Origin: an uncultured bacterium
GTDB lineage: Bacteria; Patescibacteriota; Minisyncoccia; Moranbacterales; UBA2206
Assembly (NCBI GenBank): GCA_903831805.1
Contig: CAIKZD010000009.1
Coordinates: forward strand, 8,786-72,785
Direction of reading: 5' to 3'
Length of the DNA stretch: 64,000 nt
Under the pieces are notes generated by a model, which did not search any database, was not told where the DNA came from, and worked only from the letters and a program-made list of their open reading frames with translations. Within the stretch, counting starts at the first letter, position 1. Every line of letters starts with the position of its first letter. Positions 27,040-33,764 of the stretch are shown in pieces. Made by a program: the position numbers and the translations under genes.

Positions 27040-27954
27040 ATGAATAAAGAACTGGCAAAACATTTTTTTTCAGGACACAGTGCTTGCGCCGGGTGTGCTT
27101 TTCCGGCTATCGTGCGGGCGGTGCTGGGCGAAGCGTCATGTGAGGTGGTGGTGGCCAATGCGACCGGCTGCTTGGAAGTGACTTCTTCGCTCTATCCTTA
27201 CACCGCTTGGAAAACACCCTGGATCCATAATGCTTTTGAAAATGCGGCGGCGACTATTTCCGGGGTGGAAAGAGCTTATGAAATCATGAAACGTAAAAAG
27301 AGACTGCCGGGTGGCGACAAAAAAATCAAATTCGTCGCTTTTGGCGGTGACGGCGGCACGTATGACATTGGCTTGCAATCATTGTCCGGCGCGCTGGAAC
27401 GCGGGCATAATTTTTTGTATGTTTTGTATGACAATGAAGGTTATATGAACACCGGCAACCAACGATCGTCCGCTACGCCCTATGGCGCCGCCACCGAAAC
27501 GACTCCTTCCGGTCGAGCGTCGTTTGGCAAAACGGAATTGCGCAAGAATTTGATGGACATTGTGGCAGCGCATCACATTCCATATTTGGCCCAAGCCAAT
27601 GTGGCCTATTTGGCCGATCTCAAAAAGAAAGCGCAGAAAGCCTTGGCGGTGGAAGGGCCATCGTTTCTGACGGTTTTTTCGCCGTGCACCAATAATTGGA
27701 AATTTCCCACTTCACAATATGTGGCCATTGCCAAATTGGCGACGGAAACCAATTTTTGGCCACTGTATGAAATTGAAAATGGAAAATATAAAATCACGTC
27801 CGAGCCGAAGAATGTGAAACCACTCACGGATTTTTTGAAAACCCAAGGGAGATTCAAACATCTTTTTAGCGAAAAAAACAAACCGGTTTTGGAGCGGATG
27901 CAACAAATTACCAATGAAGAATTTGCGCGGCTGGTCAGTTTGACGGAAAAATGA
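27040..27954 (+). CDS. porB: POR beta subunit (TPP-binding)
   Basis: GDGG..YDIG TPP-binding motif, Cys cluster ligands. Confidence 0.8.
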   Translation: MNKELAKHFFSGHSACAGCAFPAIVRAVLGEASCEVVVANATGCLEVTSSLYPYTAWKTPWIHNAFENAAATISGVERAYEIMKRKKRLPGGDKKIKFVAFGGDGGTYDIGLQSLSGALERGHNFLYVLYDNEGYMNTGNQRSSATPYGAATETTPSGRASFGKTELRKNLMDIVAAHHIPYLAQANVAYLADLKKKAQKALAVEGPSFLTVFSPCTNNWKFPTSQYVAIAKLATETNFWPLYEIENGKYKITSEPKNVKPLTDFLKTQGRFKHLFSEKNKPVLERMQQITNEEFARLVSLTEK

Positions 27955-28055
27955 ATTTGAGCTAGTATCGCCTCATCGGCGATCGAGGTCGTTTAAGCGG
28001 CAATTAGCGTATAAAATGGCCGAAGAGGCAATGAATTCGCCGAAGAGGCGAAAGC

Positions 28056-28128
28056 GCCACCTTAGCTCAGTTGGCAGAGCGACGCACTCGTAACGCGTAG
28101 GTCGTCGGTTCGATTCCGACAGGTGGCT
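28056..28128 (+). tRNA. tRNA-Thr (anticodon CGT)
   Basis: Cloverleaf by eye: acceptor gccacct/aggtggc, D arm gctc-agttggc-gagc, anticodon loop cuCGUaa, T arm gtcgg-ttcgatt-ccgac. CCA not encoded. Confidence 0.7.
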
Positions 28129-28161
28129 CATTTTTAAAAAATAAAAATTAACTTAAGCTCT

Positions 28162-28374
28162 ATGAAAACGATTGTTTTGCATGATTGTCACATTAACTTC
28201 GAAGACGACGTAAAAGACGTCGAGACATATCTCGGGAATCATTTGAACCTGAATGAATTCCAGACGATTTTCAACTACGCACATCTGCACCAGCAAGCCT
28301 ATTTTCAAGATAGGAATGGTCACCACTATCTCGCGGACTACAAAAACGGGGAATATTTTATCGAAAAAATTTAA
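28162..28374 (+). CDS. small hypothetical protein
   Basis: 70-aa ORF directly downstream of the tRNA. Confidence 0.4.
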   Translation: MKTIVLHDCHINFEDDVKDVETYLGNHLNLNEFQTIFNYAHLHQQAYFQDRNGHHYLADYKNGEYFIEKI

Positions 28375-28385
28375 AAAACAAAAAT

Positions 28386-28820
28386 ATGCACTACGTTACC
28401 ACTTTTAAAATTTTCAAGCATAATTTCTGGACCAATGAATGGTCGCGGTTTCTGTATGAAGGAAAATATTATCGCTTCATGGCCAGGGATATTTCAGCGG
28501 TTGAGATTTTGCCAGCTAAATACCAGCGAGTTATTTTTACGATTCCAAGAGTTTGGCTTAAGGAATATGAGAAAGGTGTGTTTATGGCTTGGAAGGAATT
28601 TCCCAAAGCCCTGCAAGCTAAGATGGAAAAATATAATTTAGTGGTGGATGATAAAGAAAAAAAGAAAATATTTACTGCGTTGCAGAAAGAACTCAAAGCC
28701 TATTTTGTGAAAAAAATCACCATTACCAATCGTCAGGCCAAGGTTTTATTGAATCTGCAAACGATGGATATCTCAGCTAGGGAAGCGCATAAAATCCATA
28801 AGAAAATCGGTCTGGAATAA
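28386..28820 (+). CDS. hypothetical protein (paralog A of 31607..32041)
   Basis: About 85% amino-acid identity to the second copy. Confidence 0.6.
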   Translation: MHYVTTFKIFKHNFWTNEWSRFLYEGKYYRFMARDISAVEILPAKYQRVIFTIPRVWLKEYEKGVFMAWKEFPKALQAKMEKYNLVVDDKEKKKIFTALQKELKAYFVKKITITNRQAKVLLNLQTMDISAREAHKIHKKIGLE

Positions 28821-28846
28821 ACTAATTCGTTAAACACACAATCATT

Positions 28847-29014
28847 ATGAAAACATACATCTGTGAAATATGCGGAGATGTGGGAATGGAATTTTTTATA
28901 TCATTTTGTTGTAGTATATTTAGTGGCGCAGTGCTTGACGGATTTTACGAATGTGCTACAATAAATTCAGCTAAAACCACCCGTCCTGACCCGCAAGGGC
29001 ACGGCGGTTTTTAG
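28847..29014 (+). CDS. small ORF (55 aa) starting MKTYICEICGD like rubrerythrin, ending TTRPDPQGHGGF
   Basis: First 38 nt are near-identical to the rubrerythrin start. 3' half overlaps the conserved promoter-terminator tail. Confidence 0.3.
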   Translation: MKTYICEICGDVGMEFFISFCCSIFSGAVLDGFYECATINSAKTTRPDPQGHGGF

Positions 29015-29023
29015 ATTTTTAGT

Positions 29024-29068
29024 ATGGAAAAATTCGATAAAGAACAAAATGTGGCTTTTAAAAAATAA
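29024..29068 (+). pseudogene. remnant of NYN-gene 5' end (MEKFDKEQNVAFKK)
   Basis: Matches the start of the 29270 gene (MEKIEKKQKRVAIY). Part of a tandemly duplicated unit of about 240 bp. Confidence 0.5.
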
Positions 29069-29087
29069 TTAATCAATAACAATCATT

Positions 29088-29252
29088 ATGAAAACATACA
29101 TCTGTGAAATTTGCGGGGATGCGGAAGTGAAATTTTTTATATCATTTCGTGGTAGTATGTTCAGTAGCGCAATTGACGAATTTTCTAGATGTGCTACAAT
29201 AAATTCAGCTAAAACCACCCGTCCTGACCCGCAAGGGCACGGCGGGTTTTAG
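29088..29252 (+). CDS. small ORF (54 aa), second copy of MKTYICEICGD...TTRPDPQGHGGF
   Basis: Frame is kept despite a 3-nt indel relative to copy 1. The last 52 nt are identical to copy 1. Confidence 0.3.
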   Translation: MKTYICEICGDAEVKFFISFRGSMFSSAIDEFSRCATINSAKTTRPDPQGHGGF

Positions 29253-29269
29253 ATTTCAAGTGTTTGAAT

Positions 29270-29845
29270 ATGGAAAAAATCGAGAAAAAACAAAAAAGAG
29301 TCGCGATATATATTGATGGAAGCAATTTTTACTATAAATTGAGGGACTTGGAAGTCCCAAATACAACCTATTTCAATTACGGCGGACTTTCAGAATGGTT
29401 GGCAAGGGATCGTGTTATTATATCGAAGAGATACTATATAGGAGTTGTAAGGGCAAAGGAAAACGATGAAAAAGGACAGATGTTAAGAAAAAATCAACAA
29501 CGGTTGTTTAATCATCTCGGTTCGTCTGTACAGGGATTTATTGTGAAACAAGGATATCTTATGAAAAATGATGGCGTGTATCACGAAAAGGGTGTGGACG
29601 TTAAAATAGCAGTTGATTTATTGGTTGGTGCTTATGAAAATATGTATGATACTGCGATTCTTATTTCTTCTGATACTGACTTGATTCCGGCTATTCAAAA
29701 AATTAAACATTTGGGCAAGGGGGTTGAGTATATAGGTTTTTCACATAAGCCAAGTTTGGCATTGCAAAAGTACGCTTCACTGACTAGGTTGATGATGAAA
29801 GAAGAGTTGGAAGATTTTGTTTCAAAAACGATTTATAAAAAGTAG
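29270..29845 (+). CDS. NYN-domain (LabA-like, PIN-like) predicted ribonuclease
   Basis: AIYIDGSNFYY...KGVDVKIAVDLL...ILISSDTDLIPAIQ. Confidence 0.7.
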   Translation: MEKIEKKQKRVAIYIDGSNFYYKLRDLEVPNTTYFNYGGLSEWLARDRVIISKRYYIGVVRAKENDEKGQMLRKNQQRLFNHLGSSVQGFIVKQGYLMKNDGVYHEKGVDVKIAVDLLVGAYENMYDTAILISSDTDLIPAIQKIKHLGKGVEYIGFSHKPSLALQKYASLTRLMMKEELEDFVSKTIYKK

Positions 29846-29865
29846 CAGTATTATTTATTAGCATT

Positions 29866-30009
29866 ATGGACAAATACCAATCCGCTTGGGAAAAATTTCA
29901 GAAAAAAATGGAAGTTTTGCGTAAAAAGCAGAAAGAAATTTTGGCGCGGATTTTTAATAAACTGGATGAGCAGAAACTCGAAGCTATCCGTAAAAAATTG
30001 CAAAAATAG
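29866..30009 (+). CDS. small coiled-coil ORF (47 aa)
   Basis: ATG 29866 to TAG 30009. The stop abuts the ATG of the next gene (possible translational coupling). Below the track cutoff. Confidence 0.3.
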   Translation: MDKYQSAWEKFQKKMEVLRKKQKEILARIFNKLDEQKLEAIRKKLQK

Positions 30010-31587
30010 ATGAGCAAAGAACAGATACAAAGTAAAAGTGAATCAGCCGTAGAGAAAATAGGGACAAAAATTTCCCCGGAAAAAACTGATGCAGAAAAAG
30101 CAGCAGAAATGAAGGTCGAGTCTGAAAAAGAAGTGGCTGGTTTTGAAAGTATAGAAAAAACTGAAATGGCGCGGGCTGAACAGCTTGTAGCTGGAGATGA
30201 ATCGCATAGTATGCATATTGATGCTAATGATATAGCGGAAATGGAGGAATCTAATCAAGAGGTGGAAGCGGCACAGGTAGAATTGGCGAATGAAATTGGC
30301 AGTAATGAAATTAGCGATGATCAAAAGGAAAAATTCGGCAACTTCATTAAGGATAAAAAAGAGTTTTATAGGGAAAATAATATGGATGTATTGAAAGAAG
30401 CGAAATATGGCAGGGATGGTGCATTAAAGGATGCAGAGTATAATAAAAAACATTTTGAGGAATATACTATAAAAGTGGAGGAGCTTAGATCGGAAATAGA
30501 ACATAAAAAATCGAGCATCATAACTAGAGTATTGGAGTTTAGGAAAATAAAAGAGCTTGAAAAAAAACTTGGTGCCCAAAAAGAACTTCAAGGAACTTAT
30601 GAAAGATGGACAGCTCAGAAAAAAGAACTGGCAGACGCTTATGACTATCTGATAGCAGAAGAAACAAAACTTTCAGCTATAATGGAGGAGGCTCACAAGG
30701 AAAATGCTGAGTGGGATGAAAATAAGAGGCTGGAGTTTATTAAAGAAGAAGACAGGAGAGATGTTTCCAAATTAGCAAAAGAACACGGAGTGTTTTTTGT
30801 CCATAATATTGTCGTGGCTGATTGGAAGCCAAGGGTCAATAATAGGGCTATTGACACAAAAAGCCTAAATTTCAACGATCAACTAGATATTATTAGGGGC
30901 TTAGATCCTACGCTTGCAGTATCTACCTTGTCACCTGATTCAAAGAATAAAACTTTCGGCAGGGCCTCTCGGGGTATATTATTTTCAGGTGGACGGATTA
31001 TTGGCGGGGATGAGAGTGATGCTGGCACCGTGGCCAATGGATTAAAAGATAGGAATATAGCGGAGCATCATAAATCAACTGAGGCAATCAGCGAGGCCAT
31101 TGAGCGTCCATCAAAAGGAAAAAAAGACAGCGAGTCTTACAACGAATTGGTTATGGAGAATCCTGAAATCGCGGGCGTATATTTCAAATGGAATGACAAC
31201 TATCCATCATTAAAGGATGGAGAGGACACATTTTTACGTAATAATGAGGTTGCTGGCTATGGAGAATGGGATGGGTGGTGGAAAGATACCGAAGAAATGA
31301 TGCAGTCTGGAGCTCCTGTTTTTGTGGTTGAAAGTGATAATAATATTCGTTTGGTGTACGATATAAATTTAAAAGAAAGGTCTTTTAAAGTAACACCGCA
31401 ATACAAGCCGGAAACCATGACGGATATGCCGGGAATATATCAACAGCACTTAGGCAAGGAGGAAAAAAGAAAGGCTGCGATGAGAGTTTTTGATAAAGCC
31501 ATAGGACTAATTCCCGAAGATGAGCAAAATAAATATATGCCAGACGGAACAGAGAAGGATGCGCAAAATTTACATAATATACATTAG
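30010..31587 (+). CDS. large acidic hypothetical protein with N-terminal coiled coil
   Basis: 525-aa ORF, no recognisable motif. Confidence 0.55.
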   Translation: MSKEQIQSKSESAVEKIGTKISPEKTDAEKAAEMKVESEKEVAGFESIEKTEMARAEQLVAGDESHSMHIDANDIAEMEESNQEVEAAQVELANEIGSNEISDDQKEKFGNFIKDKKEFYRENNMDVLKEAKYGRDGALKDAEYNKKHFEEYTIKVEELRSEIEHKKSSIITRVLEFRKIKELEKKLGAQKELQGTYERWTAQKKELADAYDYLIAEETKLSAIMEEAHKENAEWDENKRLEFIKEEDRRDVSKLAKEHGVFFVHNIVVADWKPRVNNRAIDTKSLNFNDQLDIIRGLDPTLAVSTLSPDSKNKTFGRASRGILFSGGRIIGGDESDAGTVANGLKDRNIAEHHKSTEAISEAIERPSKGKKDSESYNELVMENPEIAGVYFKWNDNYPSLKDGEDTFLRNNEVAGYGEWDGWWKDTEEMMQSGAPVFVVESDNNIRLVYDINLKERSFKVTPQYKPETMTDMPGIYQQHLGKEEKRKAAMRVFDKAIGLIPEDEQNKYMPDGTEKDAQNLHNIH

Positions 31588-31606
31588 TAATCAAAAAAAC
31601 AAAAGC

Positions 31607-32041
31607 ATGCACTACATTACCACTTTCAAAATTTTCAAGCATAATTTCTGGACCAATGAATGGTCAAGATTTCTTTATGAAGGAAAATACTATCGCTTCA
31701 CGGTCAAGGATATTTCAGCGGTTGAGATTTCGCCAGCTAAATATAAACGAGTTATTTTCACGATCCCAAGAGTTTGGCTCAAGGAATATGAAAAAGGTGT
31801 TTTTCTGGCGTGGAAAGAATTTCCCAAGACTCTTCAAGTCAAGATGAAAAAATATGATCTGGTGGTGGATGATAAAGAAAAAAAGAAAATGTTTTCCATC
31901 CTGCAAAAAGAACTTAAAGCCTATTTTGTTAAAAAAAACACCATCACCAACAGCCAAGCTAGGGCTTTATTGAAACTGCAGACGATGGATATCTCAGCTA
32001 AAGAAGCGCATAAAATCCATAAGAAAATCGGTCTGGAATAA
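31607..32041 (+). CDS. hypothetical protein (paralog B of 28386..28820)
   Basis: Start at MHYITTFK (the track ORF starts upstream). Confidence 0.6.
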   Translation: MHYITTFKIFKHNFWTNEWSRFLYEGKYYRFTVKDISAVEISPAKYKRVIFTIPRVWLKEYEKGVFLAWKEFPKTLQVKMKKYDLVVDDKEKKKMFSILQKELKAYFVKKNTITNSQARALLKLQTMDISAKEAHKIHKKIGLE

Positions 32042-32067
32042 ACTAATTTGTTAAACATATAACCATT

Positions 32068-32586
32068 ATGAAAACATATATCTGTGAAATTTGTGGGGAT
32101 GCCTATTTGGGCGAAGAGCGGCCGAGCGAGTGTCCGTTTTGCGGGTCGAGGCAGGCTTTTATCAAAGACGGTAAGGTCGCTAGTCCGATCACGCTTGCGC
32201 CGGAAGAATTGTCGGAAATTTCCAAGAAAAATTTGGAAAAAACTTTGGAACTGGAAATCCACGCCAACGCGGTCTATTTGTGCATGGCGGAAAAAACTAA
32301 GACGTATGAAATCAAAGCGATGTATAAGCGCTTGGCCAAGGTGGAATTGGAACACGCTAATATCGCGTGCAAATTGATGCAGAGTTATTTGCCGCAAGTG
32401 GGTGAAGGCTTTTGCGCTGAGGAAGATGCGTCCAATTTTGCTGAAACTATCAAACTGGAGGAGAATGCCACGGCTCTATATGTCCAATTTGCCAGAGAAG
32501 CGACAGAAAAGAACGTGAAAATTTTCTTCACCGCGCTTTCGCAAGTGGAAGCGGATCATATTAAGTTGATTAAGAATTATTTATAA
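32068..32586 (+). CDS. rubrerythrin-family protein with N-terminal rubredoxin-like CxxC...CxxC
   Basis: CEICGD...CPFCGS followed by a ferritin-like E...ExxH diiron domain. Confidence 0.75.
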   Translation: MKTYICEICGDAYLGEERPSECPFCGSRQAFIKDGKVASPITLAPEELSEISKKNLEKTLELEIHANAVYLCMAEKTKTYEIKAMYKRLAKVELEHANIACKLMQSYLPQVGEGFCAEEDASNFAETIKLEENATALYVQFAREATEKNVKIFFTALSQVEADHIKLIKNYL

Positions 32587-32596
32587 ATAATTTCAT

Positions 32597-32631
32597 GGGA
32601 GTTCGACTCCCATTAGGGGAGTCGAACTCCC
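32597..32631 (+). terminator. 15-bp perfect-stem hairpin gggagttcgactccc-attag-gggagtcgaactccc
   Basis: Perfect inverted repeat directly after the rubrerythrin stop. Weak T-tract. Confidence 0.55.
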
Positions 32632-32659
32632 TTCTGTTGGGCGGGAATTACAAAAAAAC

Positions 32660-33764
32660 ATGATCAAAGAATTCAAACTCGAAATTGAAAAACTGAAAGC
32701 TAAACTCGCTCTTTTGAGCGACTATCTTTGACTTGCCGAAAAAGAAAATCAGGATTGAAGAATTGGAAAAAGAATCGGCCGAGCCGGATTTTTGGAATGA
32801 CAATCAAGCCGCGGCCATCTTGATGCAGGAGTTGGAGGGTTTGCGCAGTGAGCTCTCGTTGCTCAGTAATTTGGAAACAGAGATTGATGAAATCGCTGAT
32901 TTTTTAGAAGTTTTTTCCGAGACGGAAAGTTCCAGTGAAGCGGAAGGAAAAGAAATTGAAAGCCGGATTGGCGAGATTGCAGAAAAATTAGACGCTTTGG
33001 AATTCAAGACGCTTTTTGCCGGTGAATATGACAACAGTAGCGCTATCCTTACCATCATGAGCGGGGCGGGCGGAGTGGATGCGCAGGATTGGAGTGAAAT
33101 GCTTCTCCGAATGTATTTACGCTTCGCGGAAAAAAATGGTTTTCGGGCCAGTTTGATTGATGAGGCGCGCGGAGCGGAAGCCGGGATAAAATCCGCTACG
33201 TTGGAAATTTCCGGCGCTTATGCGTATGGAAATTTGAAAAGCGAAGCGGGTGTGCATCGCTTGGTGCGTTTGTCGCCTTTCAATTCCGATAACCTGCGCC
33301 AAACTTCCTTTGCCTCAGTGGAAGTCTTGCCGGTCATTGCGGAAATCGCCGAGGTGCAGATTGATCCGAGCGATTTGCGCGTGGATGTCTATCGCTCGAG
33401 CGGCGCCGGTGGGCAAAGCGTCAACACGACGGATAGCGCGGTGCGCCTGACGCACTTGCCCACCGGTATCGTAGTCACTTGCCAAAACGAAAGATCGCAA
33501 TTACAAAACAAAGAGCAAGCTATGAAAATTTTGAAAGCCAAATTGCATAAACTGTATTTGGAAAAACAGGAAGCGGAAAAAAGAAAGTTGCGCGGCGTGA
33601 CCAAGGCGGCGGAATGGGGCAGCCAGATCCGTTCCTATGTCTTGCATCCGTATAAGATGGTCAAAGATCATCGCACCAAACATGAAACGGCGCAGGCAGA
33701 AGAAGTTTTGGCGGGGGACTTAACCGGTTTCATGGAAAGCTACTTGAAGCATATTCAAAAGTAA
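32660..33764 (+). CDS. prfB: peptide chain release factor 2, programmed +1 frameshift (join 32660..32728, 32730..33764)
   Basis: Frame-0 ORF MIKEFKLEIEKLKAKLALLSDYL ends at in-frame TGA within the canonical CTT TGA C site (32726-32732). The +1 frame continues DLPKKKIRIEEL... with SPF and GGQ motifs. Confidence 0.85.

Follow-up and report, generated by a model that had tools for sequence, protein, structure and literature searches.

Nested old duplications and a conserved hairpin upstream of an NYN ribonuclease gene in a tRNA-Thr-to-rubrerythrin gene cluster of a Patescibacteria genome

Genes and direct repeats at the locus

We analyzed a stretch of 64,000 nt (the window), corresponding to positions 8,786-72,785 of contig CAIKZD010000009.1 (assembly GCA_903831805.1), forward strand. 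Features between tRNA-Thr(CGT) and the rubrerythrin gene are listed in Table 1; all of the elements described for this region in the first-pass annotation were found in place. Two of the resident genes remain without a family assignment: the 70-aa ORF had no match in Pfam, PADLOC or PHROGs, and the 525-aa protein, which combines an N-terminal half that is acidic and helical with a conserved C-terminal alpha/beta domain, had none in Pfam. The G+C content is ~36% across 28.2-32.0 kb versus ~47% in the flanks. A G+C content 10 points under that of the flanks is also typical of acquired DNA and counts against vertical inheritance.

Table 1. Features of the tRNA-Thr(CGT)-to-rubrerythrin locus (window coordinates)
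Feature	Position	Strand	Basis
tRNA-Thr(CGT)	28056..28129	+	ARAGORN; Rfam tRNA, 65.9 bits
70-aa ORF, resident gene	28162..28374	+	69% identical to same-position 70-aa ORF of L012
Direct repeat copy 1: gene A, 26-nt spacer, first ~35 nt of rubrerythrin	28373..28880	+	Repeat alignment
Gene A copy 1 (A1), 144 aa, orphan	28386..28820	+	ORF; possible C-terminal helix-turn-helix
Chimeric 55-codon ORF, unit 1	28847..29014	+	ORF list and repeat alignment
Promoter-like site, unit 1: TTGACG-16-TACAAT, TG before -10 hexamer	28935..28962	+	10/12 consensus positions
NYN-leader hairpin copy 1, degenerating	28965..29016	+	Covariance model R1, 58.4 bits, E = 7e-11
14-codon NYN remnant (MEKFDKEQNVAFKK)	29024..29068	+	Repeat alignment
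Chimeric 54-codon ORF, unit 2: rubrerythrin start joined to NYN upstream region	29088..29252	+	ORF list and repeats
Promoter-like site, unit 2: TTGACG-16-TACAAT	29173..29200	+	Consensus match; conserved among motif loci
NYN-leader hairpin copy 2, intact	29203..29254	+	Covariance model R1, 62.6 bits, E = 8e-12
NYN/LabA-family (PF01936) predicted ribonuclease, 191 aa	29270..29845	+	Pfam, E = 3e-23
47-aa coiled-coil protein, resident, paired with 525-aa gene	29866..30009	+	83% identical to L012 47-aa ORF
525-aa protein, resident gene	30010..31587	+	35 homologs; AF2 model pLDDT 80
Direct repeat copy 2: gene A, spacer, true rubrerythrin start	31594..32101	+	Repeat alignment
Gene A copy 2 (A2), 144 aa, between 525-aa gene and rubrerythrin	31607..32041	+	ORF, repeat alignment
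Rubrerythrin, 172 aa, N-terminal rubredoxin-like domain	32068..32586	+	Pfam PF02915 and PF21349

The locus contains two nested direct repeats. The copies of the larger one (~510 bp) are 87.2% identical across 509 bp and extend from ~15 nt upstream of each gene A start codon, the only sequence that the left flanks of A1 and A2 have in common, to ~35 nt inside the rubrerythrin start (MKTYICEICGD). The two gene A copies, initially described as 145-aa genes with about 85% amino acid identity, are 144-aa ORFs with 86% protein identity; their product possibly ends in a helix-turn-helix. Judging by the substitution pattern (dS 0.57, dN/dS 0.11), both copies are old and under purifying selection.

The smaller repeat, previously noted as a tandem unit of about 240 bp, was confirmed with a period of 241-246 bp (89% identity between segments 28838-29018 and 29079-29256), and its onset could be placed within A1, ~19 nt before the end of the gene. 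Unit 1 ends in the 14-codon NYN remnant, while unit 2 continues as the intact NYN gene. In the remnant, ~9 codons from the start of NYN run into a copied 3' tip of gene A. The junction segment 29046-29087 matches 28803-28846 (A1 3' end and spacer) with z = 3.6, a score equaled in one of 500 shuffles, whereas the match to any NYN 3' end is weaker (z at most 1.8). Repeats this long and this similar greatly exceed what chance would produce.

The rubrerythrin gene, which is syntenic in every relative examined, supplied the 35-nt start fragment that was duplicated. Altogether, a ~42-nt rubrerythrin-start sequence (repeat family D4) is present in three copies in the window, two of them directly preceded by gene A. 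As had been observed, the MKTYICEICGD start is cut short to a 55-aa ORF after A1 and opens the full rubrerythrin after A2. Both small ORFs are made of 11-12 rubrerythrin codons followed by read-through of the putative NYN promoter and the hairpin described below. What had been noted as a conserved tail does not code for protein but corresponds to a promoter and a structured RNA leader, and the 55-codon ORF probably does not represent a functional protein.

A covarying hairpin upstream of NYN/LabA-type genes

Homologs of the NYN protein number more than 1800. Identities of 63-90% were found for the best 120 (100% for its own sequence), whose named members are Patescibacteria. The gene is preceded by a hairpin of ~45 nt, featuring an outer stem of 6 bp (CCCRYY/RRYGGG), a C/C mismatch that is conserved, and a variable inner helix with a GNRA or UUCG cap; it ends in a U tail, and A and U tracts flank the structure. 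The scan of the window with covariance model R1 detected exactly two copies, both at the NYN locus. Copy 2 (CUAAAACCACCCGUCCUG-ACCC-GCAA-GGG-CACGGCGGGUUUU) has a minimum free energy of -20.2 kcal/mol (z = -3.2). In copy 1 the first base pair is broken, and the corresponding value is -15.3 kcal/mol (z = -1.7). We infer that unit 2 is the working copy; unit 1, which precedes the 14-codon remnant, is a decaying duplicate.

Hairpins of this kind, with strong covariation, are found upstream of NYN/LabA-type genes at about 100 loci from several Patescibacteria lineages, across which the unpaired CUAAAAC, the C/C mismatch and CUG/CAC are conserved. In GTDB species genomes the hairpin is present upstream of the gene at 18 of 18 NYN loci. 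A metagenome pattern scan matched 113 stretches, 80 of which were fetched. In most of these an NYN homolog starts ~0-50 nt downstream of the hairpin, and ~68 have NYN if divergent, cut or truncated genes are counted. Of the 80 loci, ~12 have a truncated NYN or a different gene downstream, so the hairpin may also function independently of NYN. Each of the 98 other fetched loci matching the model has a single copy, and an Rfam 15 search with the hairpin produced no matching family.

Since the retrieval pattern fixed much of the outer stem, conservation in that part is partly by construction; the pattern does not account for the covariation seen at degenerate positions and within the inner helix. 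Base pairs were counted in 69 parsed distinct sequences (of 71). At pair 4 of the outer stem, 31 sequences have A-U, 36 have G-C and two have another combination; at pair 6, C-G occurs in 35, U-G in 26, U-A in eight and C-A in none. The inner helices occur in 55 different versions. Aligned with the covariance model, the sequences have a covariation score of 0.384 compared with 0.215 in shuffles (reached by 0 of 500), the number of cells changed on both sides is 116 compared with 39, and slid controls score 0.03-0.17.

The promoter-like sites in front of the two hairpins are not peculiar to the window. Of 64 distinct motif loci, 54 have a TTGACA-16/17-TAnnnT site, the distance from the end of the -10 hexamer to CUAAAA being 7-8 nt. 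The unit 2 site is likely the NYN promoter, and the unit 1 site is homologous to those upstream of NYN genes elsewhere. The hairpin would thus begin right at the predicted transcription start of a sigma-70-like, near-consensus promoter.

Gene order in relatives

The closest relative by PorB (88% amino acid identity), L012, has the order porB-tRNA-Thr-70-47-521-Rbr-prfB-ftsEX and lacks gene A, NYN and the repeats; we found no genome closer than L012, in which synonymous sites of several genes are already saturated. The homolog of the 525-aa gene also directly precedes rubrerythrin in L154 (4x (small ORF)-52x-rubrerythrin, without NYN or A), while in L155 porB lies between a 64/513-aa pair and rubrerythrin. 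The 47-aa ORF is in addition weakly similar to small ORFs preceding large uncharacterised genes in L017 and L009. NYN together with its leader is located upstream of rubrerythrin in two Moranbacteria: L017, which shares with L018 the order spacer-rbr5'-promoter-hairpin-NYN-...-Rbr, and L020 (promoter-hairpin-NYN-Rbr). The NYN protein of the window is 89% and 85% identical to those of the syntenic Moranbacteria genes. tRNA-Thr(CGT) is also present in L012, L017, L020 and L007.

These comparisons bear differently on what the first-pass annotation had proposed. The region from tRNA-Thr(CGT)/porB to prfB is indeed variable, its gene content being different in each relative (L012, L017/L018, L020, L154 and L155). 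However, the NYN, 47-aa and 525-aa genes do not behave as cargo: the order 70-47-52x-rubrerythrin-prfB is kept in L012, and NYN with its leader is syntenic in L017 and L020. Neither do they form a module, as NYN and the 47/525 pair each occur without the other. The 70-aa, 47-aa and 525-aa genes have, like rubrerythrin and NYN, long resided in the tRNA-Thr...prfB neighbourhood of related genomes.

The rubrerythrin-start/NYN-leader junction can be aligned between the window and L017, a genome with saturated synonymous sites relative to the window. Synonymous positions of PorA, NYN and the 525/521-aa gene have reached saturation (pS at least 0.75), and PorB and Rbr show heavy divergence at theirs (dS 1.3-3.3). 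The junction thus appears to be ancient and common to the window and a distantly related Moranbacterium. Outside the L017-type lineage, a rubrerythrin start before the NYN leader was found only in the window.

Gene A is the sole gene of the locus specific to the lineage of the window. Its family comprises 12 clusters among 1.8e9 representatives, and the gap between the 525-aa gene and rubrerythrin, occupied by A2 in the window, has no gene A in either L012 or L154. In another CPR lineage, next to tRNA-Thr(CGT)-prfB, an A homolog is part of an invertible element that also carries a large serine recombinase. This homolog, the drop in G+C content, the differing gene content of relatives and the three rubrerythrin-start copies might be explained if the locus were a tRNA-adjacent genomic island, with A, NYN and the 47/525 genes as acquired cargo and the repeats as successive att-like integrations in the rubrerythrin start. 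We consider this explanation improbable, although it deserves some weight. The likeness to tRNA-linked islands (a neighboring tRNA gene, lower G+C content, variable content) does not extend to their hallmarks. In agreement with the initial observation that an integrase is absent, Pfam/PHROGs-type scans detected no integrase, recombinase or phage family among the locus proteins scanned, the L009 serine recombinase has no match in the window, and the 3' end of tRNA-Thr(CGT) is not repeated anywhere in it. Most of the genes are syntenic residents, and the synonymous divergence of NYN is saturated as in its core neighbors, which argues against recent transfer. Moreover, the supposed att copies flank the resident 47/525 pair, an order that simple integration cannot yield, and no conserved flanks were found around A homologs elsewhere. 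A cargo site next to the tRNA is not supported. The tRNA gene itself was considered as an att-repeat integration site and rejected, being a conserved neighbor in relatives with an unrepeated 3' end.

Duplication history and possible role of the leader

The order of promoter, structured RNA with a terminator-like end and ribonuclease gene resembles that of ToxIN-like type III toxin-antitoxin loci, in which the RNA is an array of ~36-nt repeats. If the window coded for such a toxin-antitoxin-like or defence module, the ~245-bp repeat would be its RNA-antitoxin array. The RNA unit is duplicated, and the NYN protein matches PADLOC models HEC-09 (E = 4e-22) and NYN (E = 1e-11), but these are domain-level matches, and except for the NYN domain itself no defence families were detected among the scanned locus proteins. 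We find this interpretation hard to sustain, since the RNA is a single hairpin, its extra copy is degenerating, and the ~245-bp repeat carries a promoter and ORF fragments. The hairpin is also single-copy at the other loci, and the NYN/LabA protein is widespread, highly conserved and syntenic across the phylum rather than patchy.

We are equally skeptical of a role for the small MKTYICEICGD ORFs as true leader peptides, whose translation through the hairpin would control NYN read-through. Such a role would explain why the rubrerythrin start has been retained before the NYN leader: 28-34 of the 35 fragment positions are kept across genomes, and in both window units and L017 the ORFs stay open from the rubrerythrin-derived ATG through promoter and hairpin, with stops a few nucleotides downstream. 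However, the window and L017 read promoter and hairpin in different frames, which leaves no conserved peptide; openness is itself unremarkable, as 37 of 60 motif loci are open from -75 through the hairpin. In addition, among the 80 fetched metagenome loci only L044 (L017 type) has a rubrerythrin start upstream of the hairpin, and a transcript from the predicted promoter would exclude the ORF start.

That the repeats are mis-joined strain variants is scarcely credible: the source is metagenomic and chimeric assembly can create diverged repeats, but contigs from ENA ERZ18624244 and JGI 3300029798 (different samples and assemblers) reproduce the arrangement with 99.99-100% identity over the entire locus, both A ORFs are intact with low dN/dS, the junction is present in an independent species too, and assembly error would not yield copies diverged by 11-13%. 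Further samples, without DNA sequence, show the same arrangement. It is fixed throughout the population that was sampled, and the nested repeats represent genuine duplications of old date within an ordinary chromosomal cluster of genes in a candidate-phyla-radiation bacterium.

Overall, we favor, with a probability of roughly 65%, a vertically inherited and locally duplicated Moranbacteria-related CPR cluster, extending from tRNA-Thr(CGT) to rubrerythrin/prfB and including a hairpin-led NYN gene, over any cargo island. In the proposed history, the first ~35 nt of rubrerythrin with the upstream spacer would have been copied anciently to the front of the NYN promoter. The presence of gene A directly upstream of two rubrerythrin-start copies would account for the ~510-bp repeat, and could stem from one insertion and recombination or from two targeted insertions. 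The ~245-bp duplication would have included the A1 3' tip, the rubrerythrin-start fragment, the NYN promoter, the hairpin and ~9 NYN codons. The most likely mechanism would be unequal recombination or replication slippage, involving the short rubrerythrin-start repeats and A/T-rich microhomologies; direct repeats with junctions at such microhomologies are what these processes produce. As in concerted evolution, codons 3-4 of the start fragments (KTY or KLY) agree with the rubrerythrin gene of the same genome, and gene conversion probably maintains this similarity. Unlike segmental or tandem duplications in general, those of the window are old and fixed, with both A copies selected and neither decaying.

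Regarding the leader, autoregulatory 5'-leader hairpins are known for the E. coli genes rnc, rne and pnp (RNase III, RNase E and PNPase), and stem-loop autoregulation for Regnase-1, an NYN/PIN-like RNase. The NYN-leader hairpin is similar in being a structured element of a ribonuclease mRNA, directly upstream of the coding sequence and conserved with the gene, which by analogy makes it a plausible target of the encoded RNase. It differs in lacking homology to those leaders in sequence or structure, in starting at the predicted transcription start and in ending with an intrinsic-terminator-like U tract. A G+C-rich stem and a U tract between promoter and ORF also resemble an intrinsic (Rho-independent) terminator or attenuator. 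However, the unpaired sequence is conserved across Patescibacteria lineages, which is not the case for ordinary terminators, and with the transcript beginning at the hairpin there would be no room upstream for the alternative antiterminator fold of a classical attenuator. Position, conservation and analogy suggest that the hairpin is a cis-acting leader controlling NYN expression, which could work by terminator-like attenuation, as an operator bound or cleaved by the NYN RNase, or in both ways.

Anatomy and duplications of the locus

Between 25 and 36 kb of the window, the ORF list, tRNA scan and Pfam scan place every gene on the + strand. The order is porG-D-A-B, tRNA-Thr(CGT), a 70-aa ORF, A1, two tandem units of ~245 bp, NYN, a 47-aa ORF, a 525-aa ORF, A2, rubrerythrin, prfB, ftsE and ftsX. 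A1 and A2 are copies of a 144-aa orphan gene (gene A), and units 1 and 2 each include a rubrerythrin-start fragment, a promoter, a leader hairpin and the NYN 5′ end. The first-pass annotation had described nested duplications here, correctly so. The larger one is a direct repeat (87.2% identity over 509 bp), which runs from ~15 nt 5′ of the ATG of gene A to ~35 nt inside the rubrerythrin frame. The tandem units are 89% identical; their homology extends rightward into the first ~9 NYN codons, and the left edge takes in the last ~19 nt of A1 together with the spacer. The possibility that the duplicates are assembly artefacts was not borne out: contigs from other samples and assemblers are 99.99-100% identical to the window over the whole locus, and the arrangement is therefore real and fixed in the sampled population.

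Features of the locus and of comparison loci (L numbers denote contigs or genomes of relatives and metagenomes)
Feature	Source	Position	Strand
tRNA-Thr(CGT)	window	28056-28129	+
A1, 144 aa	window	28386-28820	+
NYN	window	29270-29845	+
A2	window	31607-32041	+
Rubrerythrin	window	32068-32586	+
True rubrerythrin start	window	32068-32102	
prfB	window	32650-33764	+
prfB frameshift site	window	32726-32732	
509-bp direct repeat	window	28373-28880 / 31594-32101	
Tandem units	window	28838-29018 / 29079-29256	
15-bp inverted repeat	window	32597-32631	
Small coiled-coil ORF	window	29866-30009	
Small coiled-coil ORF	L012	6857-7000	
Small coiled-coil ORFs	L017	8677-8865, 10293-10505	
Small coiled-coil ORF	L009	2273-2455	
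Region of the A-homolog segment	L009	53-4402	
217-bp inverted repeats	L009	53-269, 2496-2712	
Shorter NYN gene	L013	3418-3927	

Nested duplication of this kind is ordinary for repeat-mediated recombination, and no new biology has to be invoked. The rearrangements would have arisen where the short rubrerythrin-start repeats and A/T-rich microhomologies recombined unequally or allowed slippage, with unit 1 as a putatively nonfunctional, decaying duplicate. We also considered unit 1 as a full copy of rubrerythrin start, leader and NYN from which most of NYN had been deleted. This was rejected, as the 42 nt at the junction correspond to the A1 3′ end and spacer (z = 3.6) and to no NYN 3′ end (z <= 1.8).

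The A copies differ at 55 of 432 nt (dS 0.57, dN 0.064, dN/dS 0.11); both have been maintained as protein-coding and the duplication is old. Gene A lies directly 5′ of two of the three rubrerythrin-start copies in the window, which may reflect either one insertion followed by repeat-mediated recombination or two targeted insertions. In other genomes, homologs of gene A stand alone, inserted between housekeeping genes and frequently on the opposite strand (L005, L156), and in L003 the homolog follows a gene for a coiled-coil protein. Conserved flanks or terminal repeats, a sign of mobility, were looked for around A homologs and none were found.

In another CPR lineage (L009; also L006, L007, L008, L010 and L011), an A homolog (49% identity), a 60-aa coiled-coil ORF and a 493-aa ORF share a 2.2-kb segment bounded by perfect 217-bp inverted repeats. 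The segment adjoins the gene of a 512-aa large serine recombinase, itself between 93-bp inverted repeats, and its orientation is opposite between contigs of different samples (L006 versus L007 and L009). These features suggest an invertible element, located next to tRNA-Thr(CGT)-prfB-ftsEX.

The rubrerythrin (172 aa) carries PF02915 (E = 1e-10) and PF21349 (residues 4-29), that is, both the diiron and the rubredoxin-like features; the two upstream start fragments retain the first CxxC only. Codons 3-4 of the 35-nt fragments agree with the rubrerythrin gene of their own genome (KTY for the three copies of the window, KLY for the two of L017, a Moranbacterium), a pattern from which we infer probable gene conversion between the repeats, the fragment as a whole also being well conserved between genomes (28-34/35). 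True rubrerythrin starts of the window, L012, L017 and L020 are identical at 30-34 of 35 nt, compared with ~62-64% over whole genes. This suggests nucleotide-level constraint on the 5′ end of the gene, for example a translation-initiation or regulatory site. Right after rubrerythrin there is a perfect 15-bp inverted repeat (GGGAGTTCGACTCCC ... GGGAGTCGAACTCCC), which looks terminator-like, though its U tract is poor. The following prfB has a programmed +1 frameshift site of the classical type (CTT TGA C); the first of its ORFs begins at 32650, and only what lies downstream of the site appears in the ORF list.

Probably resident genes rather than an imported island

The locus had initially been read as a recombination-prone cargo site with a possible novel NYN module. 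Part of this reading stands. None of the nine ORFs of 28.1-32.6 kb that we scanned against Pfam is an integrase, as claimed, and G+C is 0.33-0.40 over 28.2-32.0 kb versus 0.44-0.52 in the flanks, the deviant composition expected of islands. However, the resident genes are syntenic in relatives, and NYN and the pair of 47-aa and 525-aa ORFs are independent of each other. Apart from the NYN domain, the scanned proteins gave no integrase, phage or defence family; besides NYN-domain models, PADLOC and PHROGs returned only a weak sub-threshold hit apiece for the 47-aa and the 525-aa ORF. The large serine recombinase of L009, used as a tblastn query, has no match anywhere in the 64-kb window, and the repeats of the window are direct rather than inverted, unlike those of invertible or shufflon-type elements. 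Even with up to three mismatches allowed, the window has a single occurrence of the 27-nt tRNA-Thr 3′ end, leaving no attL/attR-like repeat.

The closest relative found, L012 (PorB 88% aa identity), has the order porB, tRNA-Thr(CGT), 70-aa ORF, 47-aa ORF, 521-aa ORF, rubrerythrin, prfB, ftsE, ftsX, with spacers of 5-20 nt, and its locus lacks gene A, NYN and the repeats. In L154, a small ORF and a 52x-aa homolog are directly 5′ of rubrerythrin; in L155, the pair lies upstream and porB separates it from rubrerythrin. NYN occupies the same neighbourhood in two Moranbacteria (L020 and L017/L018; PorB 78% aa identity). L020 has the promoter, hairpin and NYN, and then rubrerythrin 22 nt downstream, and L017/L018 has a 126-aa gene, a spacer, a rubrerythrin start (MKLYICEICGE), promoter and hairpin, NYN, four unknown genes and rubrerythrin. 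Thus, the cassette of NYN and the 47/525 pair is not present or absent as a unit. Relatives keep subsets of the genes in place, no site empty of the whole block was found among L012, L017, L020, L154 and L155, and NYN occurs without the pair and vice versa. These gene orders indicate a set of shuffled residents, made up of the 70-aa ORF, the 47/525 pair, NYN and rubrerythrin. Among the genes of the locus, only gene A is specific to the lineage of the window.

The junction between rubrerythrin start and NYN upstream region in L017 aligns with both window units, and synonymous sites among these genomes are saturated in several genes, including NYN. It follows that the junction is ancient and that NYN was not imported recently. 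Recent horizontal transfer of the leader-NYN block from an L017-like Moranbacterium was rejected, since NYN synonymous sites are saturated as in PorA. Overall, the locus serves mainly as a worked example: a variable site next to a tRNA in a CPR genome can consist of reshuffled residents instead of an island.

Small coiled-coil ORFs (47-70 aa), weakly alike, repeatedly occur just 5′ of large unknown proteins (430-525 aa) that are not detectably homologous to each other. The large proteins encoded beside A homologs or other coiled-coil ORFs (L009, 493 aa; L017, 447 and 431 aa; L020, 453 aa; L003, 289 aa) showed no homology to the 525-aa protein in either BLASTP or hhalign.

The promoter and hairpin preceding NYN genes

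The 191-aa NYN/LabA protein is a predicted PIN-like ribonuclease (PF01936, residues 12-171, 83.3 bits against a cut-off of 24.2, E = 3e-23). It has more than 1800 homologs, and PF01936 is present in 120 of 120 listed. Each unit has a promoter-like site, TTGACG-16-TGcTACAAT, then CUAAAACCACCCGUCCUGACCCGCAAGGGCACGGCGGGUUUU. The promoter-hairpin element also precedes NYN in L017 and L020, and the hairpin was present at all 18 NYN loci from GTDB species genomes (labelled Moranbacteria, Magasanikbacteria, Gribaldobacteria, Parcubacteria group and others). Among metagenome contigs, 113 stretches match a degenerate pattern, a mode of retrieval that biases this set; in 58 of the 80 fetched, tblastn places the start of an NYN homolog ~0-50 nt downstream, and in about ten more NYN is divergent, contig-cut or truncated.

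The sequences vary in a way that preserves pairing. One outer-stem pair is A-U in 31, G-C in 36 and other in 2 of the 69 sequences parsed from 71 distinct ones, and another is C-G in 35, U-G in 26, U-A in 8 and C-A in none. The same 69 sequences contain 55 different inner helices, capped mostly by GNRA or UUCG. In a covariance-model alignment of 75 distinct sequences, 91.6% of cells pair, and at 8 of the 12 pairs both sides have changed. Covariation scores 0.384, versus 0.215 for shuffled alignments (0 of 500 shuffles reach 0.384), and the score collapses in slid-partner controls. Compensatory changes at a fixed genomic position are what is generically expected of a conserved structured cis-regulatory RNA, and on such sequence patterns the hairpin would qualify as one. 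A TTGACA-16/17-TAnnnT promoter was found at 54 of 64 distinct motif loci; from the end of its -10 hexamer to CUAAAA is a distance of 7-8 nt, which would put the transcription start at the motif.

Rfam 15 contains no match to the hairpin at E <= 5 within 27500-33000 of the window, where it detects the tRNA-Thr locus and one weak match (E 4.9, 32442-32634), neither on the hairpin. At E <= 1, it matches none of 12 other motif-bearing loci. A full-text search found no description of the motif in the literature covered. This phylum-wide NYN-leader RNA motif is the most interesting by-product of the duplication analysis.

The window holds exactly two copies, and all other matching loci have a single hairpin each. 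Copy 2, 5′ of the intact NYN, folds at -20.2 kcal/mol (z = -3.2); copy 1, 5′ of the 14-codon remnant, has lost the first base pair (-15.3 kcal/mol, z = -1.7).

The small ORFs of the units are 11-12 rubrerythrin-start codons that read on through promoter and hairpin. Their openness was rejected as a sign of coding, since the frame is open across the hairpin at 37 of 60 motif loci. In addition, the reading frame of the hairpin differs between the window and L017, and a rubrerythrin fragment precedes the motif at only one of the 80 fetched metagenome loci (L044, of the L017 type), being confined to the window beyond that lineage. Conservation of the small ORFs is thus that of promoter and RNA, not of a peptide.

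At some loci, an intact hairpin persists with NYN truncated after ~26 codons or with a ~100-120-aa ORF of unknown function downstream (L048, L056, L067, L101; L063, L071, L097, L099, L106, L108, L111, L116), and the hairpin may accordingly persist beyond the loss of NYN or function in its absence. Another Parcubacteria genome (L013) has, between rpsO and pnp, a distinct and shorter NYN gene (169 aa) that is without the leader hairpin, so that the motif marks one NYN subfamily only.

Possible roles of the leader hairpin

The data establish directly how the locus is built, how old the repeats are, its synteny, and that the hairpin is conserved and covaries. In the mechanism that we propose, the unit-2 promoter would transcribe NYN, and the hairpin would form nearly the entire 5′ UTR, ending a few nucleotides before the start codon, where it may limit or tune NYN expression as a terminator-like attenuator, a target of the encoded RNase, or both. 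We consider it somewhat less than an even chance (probability of about 0.45) that the ~45-nt hairpin is a so far undescribed functional RNA, either an operator by which NYN synthesis would be controlled by the RNase itself or by some other factor, or a small RNA partner of the enzyme, with the window as a rare natural duplicate, one copy intact and one decaying. Leader hairpins are known for the rnc, rne and pnp genes, and Regnase-1 acts on its own mRNA; the proposed control would by analogy resemble these.

Two known systems bear comparison. With its stability (-20.2 kcal/mol) and U4-5 tract, the hairpin may be an intrinsic terminator or attenuator; regulation would call for an alternative antiterminator fold, and as the motif begins at the predicted transcription start, the leader has no upstream RNA for one. 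Type III toxin-antitoxin (ToxIN-like) loci are a poor fit: they are patchy and mobile and carry an array of ~36-nt RNA repeats, whereas NYN is broadly conserved and syntenic with a single hairpin per locus, the window repeat is ~245 bp with a promoter inside, and neither a short-repeat array nor a patchy distribution was found for NYN.

Linked as it is to a ribonuclease gene that ranks among the most conserved uncharacterised ones of Patescibacteria, the strongly conserved promoter-plus-hairpin may matter more than the duplication itself. If confirmed, the leader motif would be a first experimental handle (a binding or cleavage substrate, or a reporter) on the NYN enzyme in organisms not yet culturable alone, and a phylum-wide addition to RNA motif catalogues.
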